Below are positions 6,903 through 9,980 of a DNA stretch of 10,882 nt, piece by piece. Each line of letters begins with the position of its first letter. Within the stretch, counting starts at the first letter, position 1. Source of the DNA: a virus (Duplodnaviria; Heunggongvirae; Uroviricota; Caudoviricetes); IMG/VR virus record IMGVR_UViG_2681813320_000023, one strand, 5' to 3'. The notes under the pieces were generated by a model. The model saw nothing but the letters and a program-made list of their open reading frames with translations, ran no database searches and had not been told where the DNA came from. The position numbers and the translations under genes are program-made.

Positions 6903-7109
6903 ATGGCTGAAGAGAAAAAAGGCGGTGTTTCGGTGTACATAAGCCCCGACATCGTGAAGGCGCTCAAGGAACGCCACCAGCAGAACGTAAAAGCAGGCAT
7001 TGCGGCAGGACTTGATCCGCTGGCGATGGTTGAGCCGTCAACAGGCTGGCAGGTACGCGCCTATTTACGCGCGGCGCTGGGTATGAATCAGGTTCACGGG
7101 GGTGAATAA
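6903..7109 (+). CDS. Hypothetical protein (68 aa), first gene of the head module, translationally coupled to the capsid gene
   Basis: ATG 6903 with AAGAGGA upstream. Stop TAA 7107-7109 overlaps the capsid ATG 7109 (TAATG). No recognisable family; position suggests a capsid-assembly accessory. Confidence 0.5.
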   Translation: MAEEKKGGVSVYISPDIVKALKERHQQNVKAGIAAGLDPLAMVEPSTGWQVRAYLRAALGMNQVHGGE

Positions 7110-8164
7110 TGACAGTAAAAGCAATAGCACTTAACACTAACCAGCTTTTTGCGTACCTGAATCGCGAGGATATTGCGGAATTTAAATTCAGTCCGCTGTT
7201 TACCGCGCTGTTTTTCCCGAACGTGGCGACATTCAACACACAGGACATCATGTTAGATAACCTGGATATTGAAGAAGTCACTATGTCGGCGTTTTGTTCG
7301 CCTATGGTGGGTAGCCAGGTTCAGCGCGATAAAGGGTACGAAACAAGCATTATTCGCCCTGGCTACATGAAGCCAAAACACGAAATCGATCCATTAAAAA
7401 CAATAATGCGCATGGCTGGAGAAGATCCAGCACAGCTTAACGACCCTACCTACCGCCGTATGCGCCTGATTACTGGCAACATGCGCCGCCAGATAAACGC
7501 CATTAAAGCGCGCGTGGAATGGCTGGCGGTGAATGCGATAACGACCGGAAAAAACATCATTGAGGGCGAAGGCATAGAACGCTATGAAATCGACTGGAAG
7601 ATCCCAAGTAAAAATATCGCCAGACAGGGACATGGCAAAAAGTGGTCAGAGGCAGATAAGGAAACACACGATCCAATCTATGACATCGAGCTTTATGCTG
7701 ATCAGGCTGGTTGCCCCGCAAACGTCATGATTATGGGCGCTGAGGTATGGCGAACGTTACGCAGCTTTAAAAAATTCCGTGAGCTGTACGATCTTTCCCG
7801 TGGTTCAGAGTCCGCCGCAGAGCTGGCCTGTAAAAACCTGGGCGAAGTGGTGAGCTTTAAAGGCTATCTGGGCGATATTGCCCTTATCGTCTATTCCGGC
7901 AAATACGCCGACAGCGACGGCACAGAAAAATATTTCCTTGAGCCTGATTTGCTTGTCCTGGGCAACACCAACAATAAAGGGCTGGTGGCCTATGGTGCGA
8001 TTATGGATCAGGACGCAGTAAGAACGGGGGCAACGCAAAACATGTACTACCCGAAAAACTGGATTGAGGACGGAGATCCGGCGATTGAGTACGTGCAGAC
8101 GCACAGCGCACCGCAGCCGGTTCCGGCAGATATTCGCAAATTTGTTACTGTCAAAATTGATTAA
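7109..8164 (+). CDS. Major capsid protein, phage lambda gpE-like (351 aa)
   Basis: Colinear similarity to lambda gpE along the whole length, from memory: EFKFSPLFTALFF vs KFKFDPLFLRLFF; PGYMKPKHEIDP vs PGYVKPKHEVNP; EDPAQLNDPTYRRMRLI vs EDPQNLADPAYRRRRII; GDIALIVYSGKY vs GDVAIVVYSGQY; YYPKNWIEDGDPAIEY vs RYPKNWVTTGDPAREF. RBS GGGGGTG upstream, stop TAA 8162-8164. Confidence 0.85.
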   Translation: MTVKAIALNTNQLFAYLNREDIAEFKFSPLFTALFFPNVATFNTQDIMLDNLDIEEVTMSAFCSPMVGSQVQRDKGYETSIIRPGYMKPKHEIDPLKTIMRMAGEDPAQLNDPTYRRMRLITGNMRRQINAIKARVEWLAVNAITTGKNIIEGEGIERYEIDWKIPSKNIARQGHGKKWSEADKETHDPIYDIELYADQAGCPANVMIMGAEVWRTLRSFKKFRELYDLSRGSESAAELACKNLGEVVSFKGYLGDIALIVYSGKYADSDGTEKYFLEPDLLVLGNTNNKGLVAYGAIMDQDAVRTGATQNMYYPKNWIEDGDPAIEYVQTHSAPQPVPADIRKFVTVKID

Positions 8165-8175
8165 CGGGGGATTCT

Positions 8176-8511
8176 ATGGACACTCCATACATTGAGTTAT
8201 TTGCAGGCAGTCAGCAGGTCGCCACGACGCTGGTACATTTTGCCGCTGATGCTGGCGTTATCCAGGAATTTACCCCGCTGATGCTGGCGGACAATGGCGA
8301 GTTTAAGCCGTGGGATGGTCAGGAATCTGGCAAGGCTGTTTATCTGACTTCGTACCCCGTGGACACGTCAAAGCAGAAATCAGCACAGTGTTACAAGACG
8401 GGGATATTTAATATCGCCGCCGTAAACTGGCCTGAGAGCGCCGACACTGACGCGAAAAAATGCGCCGCCTTTGCGGGTTCTGGCGTATCCGTTCAGCCGC
8501 TGGCGCGATAA
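8176..8511 (+). CDS. Head decoration protein, phage lambda gpD-like (111 aa)
   Basis: C-terminal half matches lambda gpD from memory: TPLMLADNGEFKPWDG vs TPLMLDTSSRKLVAWDG; YKTGIFNIAAVNWPESADTDAKKCAAFAGSGVSVQ vs [46 protein letters not shown] upstream of ATG 8176. Confidence 0.8.
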   Translation: MDTPYIELFAGSQQVATTLVHFAADAGVIQEFTPLMLADNGEFKPWDGQESGKAVYLTSYPVDTSKQKSAQCYKTGIFNIAAVNWPESADTDAKKCAAFAGSGVSVQPLAR

Positions 8512-8523
8512 GCAGGGGAAACG

Positions 8524-8937
8524 ATGGCAACGAATGAAAGCATCATGGCGCTACCGCTGGCGAGTAAATTTAAAGCAGAAGCGCGGGCAATGGCTGACAG
8601 AGGTTTATCAACCTACGAGGCCGTATATCAACTCAACAAACTGGAAGAACAGGACAAGCCGCGCGCTGATGCGATTATGGCGCTTCATGAACATAACGAC
8701 TATCAGCCGCTGTTACGTGCAATGGCAAACGTGCCATGTATTAGCGTCGATAATGCTCGTGAAATCCTGAACATGACCATAGAGCAGGAGCGCCCAAAGG
8801 TTGCACCAGAGCTTACCGCAGCCTTTGAAAACTTTATGGACATGCACAGCCCGCAAGCCGTATCAGCTGGCATGGCGTACGATGGCAGAAACCAGGGCGA
8901 TGACGGCGACATCGATCGCATGCTGAAAACCATCTGA
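8524..8937 (+). CDS. Hypothetical acidic protein (137 aa), last gene of the head module
   Basis: RBS AGGGG 5 nt upstream of ATG 8524. Stop TGA 8935-8937 followed directly by a terminator and the cos site. No recognisable family. Confidence 0.55.
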   Translation: MATNESIMALPLASKFKAEARAMADRGLSTYEAVYQLNKLEEQDKPRADAIMALHEHNDYQPLLRAMANVPCISVDNAREILNMTIEQERPKVAPELTAAFENFMDMHSPQAVSAGMAYDGRNQGDDGDIDRMLKTI

Positions 8938-8943
8938 GACAAG

Positions 8944-8967
8944 GCCGGAGAAATCCGGCTTTTTTTT
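8944..8967 (+). terminator. Rho-independent terminator (GCCGGA-GAAA-TCCGGC + T8), near-identical to the hairpin at 6670-6691
   Basis: Perfect 6-bp stem with GAAA loop and eight T, 7 bp after the stop of ORF 8524..8937. Confidence 0.6.
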
Positions 8968-9060
8968 ACGGGTCCTTTCCGGCATATGGACCCGTTACGG
9001 GGCGGCGACCTCGCGGTTTTTCGCTATTTATGAGCCTTTTCAGGGGGGTGGTGGTGGTTT
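8968..9060 (+). other. Lambda-type cos site: cosQ-like and right-end-like sequence (8968-8999), cosN 12-nt cohesive-end sequence GGGCGGCGACCT (9000-9011), followed by a diverged cosB-like region
   Basis: ACGGGTCCTTTCCGG...GTTACG | GGGCGGCGACCTCGCGG(T)TTTTCGCTATTTATGA matches the remembered lambda genome ends almost base for base. Sequence from about 9035 to the TerS start differs from lambda cosB. Confidence 0.75.
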
Positions 9061-9144
9061 TGTTGTTTGCTCTATCTTTATGAATGAAAAGGGAAAGATG
9101 CAAACAATACACCAACCTGAAGCAGTAATTAAGTTGGTGTATTA

Positions 9145-9687
9145 ATGAAATCGCACCTGATGAACAAAAAAAACATGGCGAAAAGCTGCCGTGTAAGTGC
9201 GACAGCGTTCGACAAGTGGGGAGTGACTCCCGTTGAACGTAAAGGCCGTGAGGCGTTTTACGATGTTGCCAGCGTGATAGACAATAGGGTTAACAATGCA
9301 ATTAGCCAGCTTACAAACGACAAAGGCGATATTGATGATGATGAACTCTTACGAGTCAGGATCAGATTACTGACAGCACAGGCGGAGGCGCAGGAACTTA
9401 AAAACGAGCGCGATCGCGGTGACGTGATCGATACTGAGTTTTGCCTGTACGCGCTTTCAAAGCTGGCGAGTCAGATTTCATCAATCATGGACAGCCTCCC
9501 GCTTACTATGCAAAGGAGCTTCCCACAGATTACCCCCGCCATGCTGGATAGGCTTAAAAGGGAAGTGGTTAAAGCCTGTAATGCCAGTGCCAGAGTTGCC
9601 GACAACCTCCCACAGATACTGGCTGATTACTTGAAAGAAACAACCGGAAACGTACCGGAAAAGTTGCAGCCGAATAAAGATAAGTAA
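9145..9687 (+). CDS. Terminase small subunit, lambda Nu1-like (180 aa as tracked; possibly 175 aa from the MNKK start at 9160)
   Basis: C-terminal half aligns strongly to lambda Nu1 from memory: RIRLLTAQAEAQELKNERDRGDVIDTEFCLYALSKLASQISSIMDSLPLTMQRSFPQI vs RLTRAQADAQELKNARDSAEVVETAFCTFVLSRIAGEIASILDGLPLSVQRRFPEL. N-terminus MNKKNMAK... is more weakly similar to Nu1 MEVNKKQLAD.... Located about 135-150 bp downstream of cosN, as in lambda. Confidence 0.8.
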   Translation: MKSHLMNKKNMAKSCRVSATAFDKWGVTPVERKGREAFYDVASVIDNRVNNAISQLTNDKGDIDDDELLRVRIRLLTAQAEAQELKNERDRGDVIDTEFCLYALSKLASQISSIMDSLPLTMQRSFPQITPAMLDRLKREVVKACNASARVADNLPQILADYLKETTGNVPEKLQPNKDK

Positions 9688-9698
9688 CGTAGTACGCT

Positions 9699-9980
9699 AT
9701 GACTGAATCCGAAATACTGCGATTAATCCGCCGCGTCTCTGGAATCAGCCAGCAGGCTGACGAACAGACCACGCAGCCGGACAGCGTGACAGCCGAAAAC
9801 TATGCGCGTGTTGTTGCTGAGGTGATGCGCCGTGATGGTATAGAACTTAATGGCGTGGATATGCGCAACATACGAACCAGAGTTCTTGAGTTGCTGGCCT
9901 ACCGTCGCCGCGTGGAGATGTATCGGGAGAAGGAGAAAATAACGTACCACTGGAAGAAGCCGGAGCGGTTGCGGCGGTAA
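9699..9980 (+). CDS. Hypothetical protein (93 aa) downstream of the TerS-like gene
   Basis: ORF begins 12 bp after the TerS stop, with no strong RBS. Arg-rich, helix-like sequence. No recognisable family. Confidence 0.4.
   Translation: MTESEILRLIRRVSGISQQADEQTTQPDSVTAENYARVVAEVMRRDGIELNGVDMRNIRTRVLELLAYRRRVEMYREKEKITYHWKKPERLRR

Follow-up and report, generated by a model that had tools for sequence, protein, structure and literature searches.

A candidate cos site with its own small terminase in an EcCICFT073-family phage-inducible chromosomal island

Which proteins would select and cut the DNA of a satellite that carries a cohesive-end site and a small terminase gene but no large terminase? 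The question is raised by positions 8968–9144 of the viral record IMGVR_UViG_2681813320_000023, a stretch of 10,882 nucleotides that was analysed at its full length and is called the window here. Judged by its genes, the window is an E. coli phage-inducible chromosomal island (PICI) of ~11 kb that belongs to the EcCICFT073 family. A preliminary description, made from the letters alone, had taken the element for a satellite with a lambda-type cos site and a TerS-like start behind it; both points hold, given the synteny with EcCICFT073-family islands, the absence of large terminase (TerL), portal and tail genes, and a Nu1-family small terminase (TerS; PF07471, PHROG 57) encoded at 9145–9687, directly after cosB. 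We propose, with a probability of about 0.7, that 8968–9144 is a functional cos site of this TerS-encoding island, at which the island TerS would read a private cosB and the TerL of a helper phage would do the cutting.

A lambda-type cleavage site and an N15-class cosB

All bp numbers are counted from cosN bp 1, the first cohesive-end base, at window position 9000. A composite pattern consisting of lambda cosQ, 20 unspecified bases, ACG and lambda bp 1–34 matches the window once, at 8970–9033 on the plus strand with one mismatch, and finds no match in 200 dinucleotide shuffles. The cohesive-end 12-mer GGGCGGCGACCT likewise occurs in a single copy, at 9000. The preliminary description had placed cosN at 9000–9011, and its coordinates are right: cosQ (GGGTCCT) and all 12 cohesive-end bases are identical to those of lambda. 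The lone mismatch is a G-to-T substitution, not an insertion, at bp 18 (9017). Read from 8968 to 9144, the segment comprises ACGGGTCCTTTCCGGCATATGGACCCGTTACG, then GGGCGGCGACCT, then CGCGGTTTTTCGCTATTTATGA, and a further 111 bp that lead to the ATG at 9145.

Ungapped identity to lambda is 24/32 at bp −32 to −1, 12/12 in cosN (delimited as in PMC9026076) and 21/22 at bp 13–34, followed by 7/12 at bp 35–46, 23/54 at bp 47–100 and 13/45 at bp 101–145. The likeness is lost beyond ~bp 46, and BLAST matches of the cos region to 99 phage records all end at window position 9045. An almost exact copy of lambda, as had been claimed, is thus an apt phrase for cosQ, cosN and bp 13–34 but not for the cosQ–cosN spacer, which that description had elided; the spacer differs from lambda and is of the type found in phage PhiR5_1 and in cos1 of EcCICFT073. 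With cosQ, the spacer makes up a perfect 8-bp inverted repeat (8968–8975 and 8988–8995; ACGGGTCC and GGACCCGT), which is also present in PhiR5_1 and EcCICFT073 cos1, not in lambda. Immediately 5' of cosQ, a terminator-like hairpin ends the operon of capsid and scaffold-like genes (Table 1).

Relatives of the locus in IMG/VR number 80, with TerS proteins 83–100% identical. A cosN within 2 mismatches of lambda lies just 5' of terS in 64 of them, and in 61 of these 64 the ATG stands exactly 145 bp from cosN bp 1. Among 36 distinct cos sequences with this 145-bp spacing, cosQ is at least 90% conserved and the cosQ–cosN spacer, of which the family has three types, is variable; bp 13–34 are almost invariant in the family. 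We read cosQ, cosN and bp 13–34 as a generic lambda-type substrate for the large terminase of a lambdoid helper.

The segment that follows had been called a diverged cosB. Identity to lambda, which would have told against that view, was not found, and the mismatch to lambda over bp 47–145 bears the word out; however, the segment falls into the N15/Monarch class and keeps the lambda R3–R2–R1 geometry. Its predicted layout is lambda-like, with R3 pointing rightward, a spacer, R2 pointing leftward and R1 pointing rightward again, and its R sequences are of the N15 class rather than that of lambda (Table 1). This cosB thus appears as a three-element site of lambda/Monarch geometry with satellite-specific R sequences, and not as an orphan.

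The closest layouts come from Salmonella and Plesiomonas prophages in a plasmid collection, whose cos regions align to the window through ~9120 with 75–78% identity and each precede genes for TerS and TerL. These prophages carry the 12-mer GGTTGTTGTATT three times, at bp 51–62 (plus strand, GGTTGTTGTTTx), 107–118 (minus strand) and 188–199 (plus strand); a tripartite 'Monarch-type' cosB has been described by Feiss et al. (PMC4669245). N15 has R3 alone, which we locate at bp 50–61 and which was defined experimentally at bp 48–59 (PMC4669245). Searched by itself with blastn, cosB (9040–9144) returned nothing meaningful from 50,697 phage records. A satellite-only cosB was first inferred from that result and then contradicted by the alignable cosB of the Monarch-like prophages, and the claim of satellite specificity was therefore narrowed to the variant of the R sequences.

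Two inverted repeats run through the site. One is imperfect and 18 nt long (9053–9070 and 9100–9117; 14/18 complementary, 29 nt between the arms), with a score reached in 1 of 300 shuffles of bp 35–145; the other is a perfect 11-nt repeat (9106–9116 and 9133–9143). For the latter, a role as a hairpin, regulatory or in RNA, was weighed and rejected, given that its left arm alone is conserved and that relatives show no compensatory change; the repeat is better read as the putative R2 and R1 protein sites. Across the 36 distinct sequences, conservation within cosB is highest in the R3 and R2 blocks: each position of bp 51–65 is at least 90% conserved, 11 of these 15 are invariant, and bp 110–122 (9109–9121) are invariant throughout. 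R1 is variable, being intact in the window and in O157-type alleles and degenerate in other alleles.

Table 1. Predicted features of the window, in order of position
Feature	Position	Strand	Remarks
Tyrosine integrase gene int	1–1218		
AlpA gene	1593–1781		E 5e-18
D5-type primase gene	4030–5862		
Lambda E-like major capsid protein gene	7109–8164	+	
D-like decoration protein gene	8176–8511	+	
137-aa scaffold-like open reading frame	8524–8937	+	
Intrinsic-terminator-like hairpin and T-run	8941–8962	+	9-pair stem, 5 GC pairs, T tail
cosQ, GGGTCCT	8970–8976	+	begins 30 nt ahead of bp 1, the lambda distance
cosQ–cosN spacer	8977–8997	+	non-lambda; PhiR5_1/EcCICFT073 cos1 type
cosN, cohesive end 9000–9011 (GGGCGGCGACCT) with 2 bp on each flank	8998–9013	+	12/12 against lambda
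bp 13–34, cosN-to-cosB spacer (I2-equivalent)	9012–9033	+	21/22 against lambda
R3-like element GGTGGTGGTTTT (bp 51–62), proposed primary TerS site	9050–9061	+	register of N15/Monarch-class R3 (GGTTGTTGTTTx)
R3–R2 spacer, partly conserved (CTCTATCT, TATGAAT, AAAGGGAAAGAT)	9062–9105		position of lambda IHF site I1
R2-like element GGTTGGTGTATT (bp 107–118), inverted relative to R3	9106–9117	−	same bp as R2 of the Salmonella/Plesiomonas prophages
R1-like element AGTTGGTGTATT (bp 133–144), abuts the terS start codon	9132–9143	+	repeat analysis
terS, 180-aa Nu1-family small terminase	9145–9687	+	PF07471 E 2.3e-23; PHROG 57 E 2.9e-53

Three further observations concern the same segment. An 11-nt direct repeat (TATGAATGAAA and TATTAATGAAA) occupies 9079–9089 and 9140–9150, and its second copy spans the terS start codon. 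At the R3 position of EcCICFT073 cos1 (L005:7612–7623, bp 54–65) stands CACCACCACCAC, the reverse complement of the (GGT)n tract in the TerS-type R3 (window 9047–9058), in the same place on the opposite strand; rough arithmetic puts the chance expectation of this strand mirror at ~4e-4. The other 16 of the 80 IMG/VR loci keep R3, R2 and TerS and have the cosN variants GGGCGTCAGGCG or GGGCGGAAGGCG (e.g. L133:17027–17100; L086, L089–L093).

The small terminase and its recognition helix

The island TerS joins an N15-like winged helix-turn-helix DNA-binding domain, with the changed recognition helix SATAFDKW, to a lambdoid-like C-terminal half. It is 35% identical to lambda Nu1 over residues 6–166, a full-length homology that includes the C-terminal region and extends over the stretch that corresponds to the TerL-binding part of Nu1. 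Identity to N15 gp1 is 46% overall and 57% in the DNA-binding domain, where lambda and PhiR5_1 reach 31–41%, and the 50,697 phage records hold no TerS more than 46% identical to the island protein. A sequence search of the PDB was uninformative, returning spurious matches only and no chain of Nu1, Rpp or RppC.

The two halves of the protein have different relatives. Over the N-terminal 50 residues, satellites of three genera are 66–84% identical to one another, 52–61% identical to phages of the N15/Monarch class and 27–41% identical to lambda and PhiR5_1; over the C-terminal half, the same satellites are 42–56% identical. The C-terminal half of the window TerS is closest to the E. coli lambdoid phage PhiR5_1 (58%; 61% by tblastn), against 41% for N15, and that of a Superficieibacter satellite is closest to lambda (73%). 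Residues 126–166 are only 61% identical between two E. coli island alleles that agree at 96–98% elsewhere. Co-evolution of the DNA-binding domain with cosB, combined with exchange of the C-terminal half to fit the terminases of helpers, would be expected to produce such a mosaic.

The recognition helix and the R sequences vary together. In species-representative genomes, a peptide-pattern scan from a single protein confirmed no locus, and an alignment-based scan recovered an N15-type DNA-binding domain at 35 loci, whose hosts range from Enterobacterales to Pseudomonas and Halomonas. The helix is SVQAFDKW at 31 of these 35; GGTTGTTGT lies no more than 330 bp 5' at 29 of the 31, an open reading frame of TerL size (635–697 aa) follows at 26 of those 29, and GGTGGTGGT occurs at none of the 31. 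The Kosakonia and Superficieibacter loci have no TerL, a GVTAFDKW helix, and GGTGGTGGTGTT exactly 16 nt after ...TATGA, in the register of the window R3; their order is E-like capsid, D-like decoration, AlpA-like regulator, cos and terS, and one of them lies within a capsid gene. In the satellites of three genera, with an AT or VT helix and no TerL, GGTGGTGGT occupies R3 in the same register. Among the 64 IMG/VR loci with a lambda cosN the helix is SATAFDKW without exception, and at none does an open reading frame of more than 94 aa, such as TerL, begin near the terS stop.

The changed bases fall in a block that matters in N15, where scrambling bp 54–59 lowers yield 100-fold (PMC4669245). Counted from cosN bp 1 in either sequence, the window and N15 disagree at bp 55 and 58 of this block; set R3 to R3, these are the same T-to-G changes as those at bp 54 and 57 of the window numbering. 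In three genera, by these comparisons, satellites pair a VQ-to-AT/VT change in the helix with T-to-G changes in the R cores. We tentatively suggest, at slightly less than even odds, that satellites re-specified an N15/Monarch-class TerS–cosB pair in this way into a private address that no sequenced phage uses, with the C-terminal half swapped repeatedly to suit the local helper TerL.

Packaging by the island terminase and competing explanations

The preliminary description had argued that an identical nicking site with a different terminase-binding site is what a satellite needs. The sequence supports the combination, but it is not diagnostic of a satellite because lambda and phage 21 share cosQ and cosN and yet differ in cosB (PMC4669245). 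In that pair, a different cosB and TerS helix make packaging mutually exclusive by >1000-fold (PMC4669245), and we propose the same logic here, with the difference that lambda and 21 are autonomous and have their own TerL, whereas the window is a satellite without one. Neither lambda nor 21 terminase packages N15 DNA, and lambda TerL is functional as part of an N15-specific terminase (PMC4669245).

In the proposed route, a lambdoid helper would induce the island, and the island TerS would bind R3 and R2 through its N15-derived winged helix-turn-helix domain, probably as a dimer of such domains by analogy with the family, its altered recognition helix matching the altered R sequences. The lambdoid-like C-terminal half would recruit the helper TerL, which would nick at 9000–9011, leave a 12-nt 5' overhang and move island concatemers into capsids. 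Packaging would stop at the next cosQ/cosN, with termination via cosQ, as is expected for the family. The helper TerS would not read the island cosB, and packaging would therefore select the island, probably at the helper's expense. Within this scheme, direct binding of TerL by the island TerS is favoured, at even odds or somewhat better.

Helper–satellite pairs can be seen where relatives of the module sit in the late genes of lambda-type prophages, in the portal gene (L015) or the capsid gene (L133, L018). In strain GPEC1035 the island interrupts a prophage portal gene, and the Nu1 of that prophage is identical to lambda Nu1 at 179 of 181 residues. The island cos and the helper cos of this strain agree at 29/32 positions upstream of cosN, 12/12 in cosN, 20/22 at bp 13–34 and 24/54 at bp 47–100; over this last interval the window and the GPEC1035 island agree at 49/54. 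In WP8-S17-ESBL-12, the island lies in the capsid gene of the same lambda-type helper. The best sequence match for a helper of the window is with PhiR5_1-like lambdoids.

Two ideas about these pairs were dropped. That cosN tracks the helper was ruled out by an island that carries GGGCGTCAGGCG inside a prophage with lambda cohesive ends; the cohesive ends of satellite and helper therefore need not match. Nor does the cosQ–cosN spacer type or the TerS C-terminal allele track the helper consistently: the O157 allele has the window's TerS C-terminus with another spacer, and L013 and L010 share one TerS and differ in their spacers.

Several results weigh against packaging by the island TerS and helper TerL as proposed. 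R1 is not kept across alleles. The IHF consensus WATCAANNNNTTR has no match of at least 7/9 in bp 55–110, where lambda and the Salmonella prophage reach 8/9 in the same scan, although a scan of this kind is a weak test. No sigma-70 promoter for terS was found 3' of the terminator at 8941–8962. Over TerS residues 126–166, identity is no higher than 32% with lambda Nu1 and 51% with the best-matching phage, so that TerS cannot be assumed to bind TerL directly; nor do the embedded copies show a clear match of their C-terminal region to the lambda-type helper (16/40). The cosN of the WP8-S17-ESBL-12 island differs from that of its helper at 5 of 12 positions, all in the right half, where variation is tolerated (PMC4669245). 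Finally, the TerS-encoding E. coli islands IHE3034 and 18098 gave no high-frequency transfer from their native strains (PMC6092414).

The strongest competitor takes its model from EcCICFT073 of E. coli CFT073. That island has two cos sites with lambda/phi80-like cosQ and cosN and no phage cosB; its RppA binds the helper TerS, the complex recognises the cosB of cos1, and a cosB swap moves the specificity (PMC6739421). EcCICFT073 cos1 works with lambda and phi80 as helpers, and deletion of the helper terS abolishes transfer (PMC6092414, PMC6739421). The window island could act likewise, its TerS hetero-oligomerising with the helper TerS through a central self-association region, so that the mixed complex reads cosB, the helper TerS contacts TerL and the helper TerS is required. 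The two islands are syntenic, sharing the order primase, PerC, E-like capsid, D-like decoration, 137-aa open reading frame, cos, specificity gene and 93-aa open reading frame, and terS occupies exactly the slot of rppA (144 aa). Both have a lambda-type cosQ/cosN, a non-lambda cosB and a specificity gene that starts ~100–145 bp after cosN. The most lambdoid-like part of the island TerS, residues 77–125 (55% identical to lambda, 67% to PhiR5_1), would also suit contact with a helper TerS, as would the weak match of residues 126–166 to lambda-type helpers, embedded copies included.

We nonetheless consider this mode unlikely, at roughly one chance in four. Rpp proteins are 135–153 aa long and have no C-terminal TerL-binding region (PMC9026076), whereas the island TerS keeps a full-length Nu1-homologous C-terminal half; this half is kept in every allele seen and exchanged with local phages, which argues that it is used. 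BLASTP detects no similarity between the island TerS and RppA (E 1.4). The sites differ as well: for Rpp islands, Murialdo and Feiss proposed a single R3-like site at bp 48–65 and described no repeated R sequences (PMC9026076), where the window has three repeated R elements; and there is one cos in the window against two in CFT073.

A second competitor holds that the island merely has the cosB and TerS of an N15/Monarch-class helper, whose terminase would package the island and leave the island TerS redundant or a decoy. The TerS DNA-binding domains are homologous (54–57% identity to the class, 57% to N15 gp1), R3 lies in the same register (bp 50/51–61/62), the Monarch cosB is tripartite too, with R2 at bp 107–118 in Monarch-like prophages, and the 75–78% match is to cosB regions of TerL-bearing Salmonella and Plesiomonas prophages. 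Escherichia prophages with a lambda cosN and a Monarch-type cosB also exist (L020/L021). Against such a helper, the window has GGTGGTGGT instead of GGTTGTTGT in R3 and GGTTGGTGTATT instead of GGTTGTTGTATT in R2, so that core positions depart from a consensus that is nearly invariant among the phages; the helix differs in step (SATAFDKW against SVQAFDKW at phage-type loci). Other differences from the class are that no TerL follows terS in the window, that R1 adjoins the start codon and that the IHF consensus was not found. The 50,697 phage records contain neither a TerS above 46% identity nor the island cosB, and the embedded copies reside in prophages of the lambda-Nu1 type, not the Monarch type. 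We regard this explanation as improbable.

Weakest of all, and very improbable, is a decaying prophage end, a cos and Nu1 remnant with no current packaging role, which the undetected terS promoter and the lack of reported experimental transfer for TerS-type E. coli islands (PMC6092414) would suit, but against which stand an intact 180-aa reading frame, the exact 145-bp spacing in 61 of 64 loci, cosB blocks invariant among 36 distinct sequences, a full PICI gene set, and the module's presence in 772 genomes, at several attachment (att) sites and in several genera.

The island, its relatives and its place among satellites

Of 5,426 complete E. coli genomes, 772 carry the cosB–terS module (9035–9700), ~8 times as many as carry the RppA module (97), and the 772 include O157:H7 and O55:H7 strains. 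The cosB–terS module is found at several att sites, among them phoQ-proximal and clpS-proximal ones and an IS110 gene, and also in the late genes of lambdoid prophages; a 95%-identical relative of the window island is inserted in tqsA. In the window, the int, alpA and primase module is co-oriented, a DUF4222 protein and PerC are also encoded, the order of the capsid, decoration and 137-aa genes matches that 5' of EcCICFT073 cos1, and a 93-aa protein is encoded after terS. No gene for TerL, a portal, a protease, a head–tail connector or a tail was found in the window.

Many relatives (30 of the 64 lambda-cosN loci) have a second, inverted cos (L011:2466–3345, L001:11842–12720, L005:7559–8310), of which the window has none; the cosB of this second cos is a complete phage-type R3–R2–R1 set of yet another specificity. 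In strain LZHX12, the ~855-bp interior, comprising the island cosB, terS and the phage-type cosB, is inverted relative to O157, with 753/849 positions identical as reverse complement and 472/752 on the same strand, which implies flipping by recombination between the inverted cosQ–cosN repeats.

Elsewhere in the window, Rfam models identify a C4 antisense RNA (72.6 bits) and an a1/b1 target element (46.8 bits) at 3003–3207, just 5' of the region annotated as an Icd-like gene in relatives; this region is a P1/P7-type immunity cassette carried by the island. Directly 3' of the primase gene, 5875–5894 and 6004–6035 hold iterons of 10/11 bp (GGTGAACAGT[T], three copies) and an inverted pair, probably the island replication origin. 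A 377-aa open reading frame at 1839–2972 fills the variable region after alpA, where the embedded relative L133 has a TIR-domain protein. It has no Pfam match, its last ~60 residues alone match 'transcriptional repressor' PHROGs of phages, and an accessory or defence role is possible.

Other satellites offer partial parallels. Like the window, a Staphylococcus aureus pathogenicity island (SaPI) has its own TerS, which pairs with the helper large terminase and redirects packaging (PMC6092414); however, the SaPI TerS is of another family and serves headful (pac) packaging, whereas the window is a cos system with predicted 12-nt ends. Helper-embedded PICIs of the 11capE type (PMC10111431) resemble the window's relatives inside lambda-type prophage late genes, but this island type also sits in chromosomal tqsA, and 11capE, as published, is said to have no terS. 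Capsid-forming PICIs (cf-PICIs) of the EcCIEDL933 type share a capsid gene and a small terminase of their own with the window; they encode all proteins of capsid formation and packaging (bioRxiv 10.1101/2022.09.08.507074), whereas the window lacks TerL, portal and protease. In the PICI family of the window, helper-dependent induction, packaging and transfer have been shown for EcCICFT073 only (PMC6092414), and the principle of packaging redirection is already published for this Rpp-type sister island (PMC6092414, PMC6739421). TerS-type E. coli PICIs have been catalogued (PMC6092414); our literature search found no dissection of one, and in the literature searched the TerS version, the Monarch-like three-R architecture and the re-specification of helix and R sites are undescribed.

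Packaging specificity determines which DNA leaves a lysing cell, and the only dissected Gram-negative cos satellite, EcCICFT073, relies on Rpp. If the island TerS works directly with the helper TerL, enterobacteria would have a second, simpler route of molecular piracy, with a compact and testable TerS–DNA code that sets helix residues against R-site bases, and an orthogonal cos/TerS pair usable for engineered transducing particles. If the re-specification reading is also true, the commonest cos PICI type of E. coli, present in 14% of complete genomes, would package itself without the helper TerS by a mechanism distinct from the Rpp route, and would offer a natural, minimal rewrite of specificity involving two residues and two base pairs.

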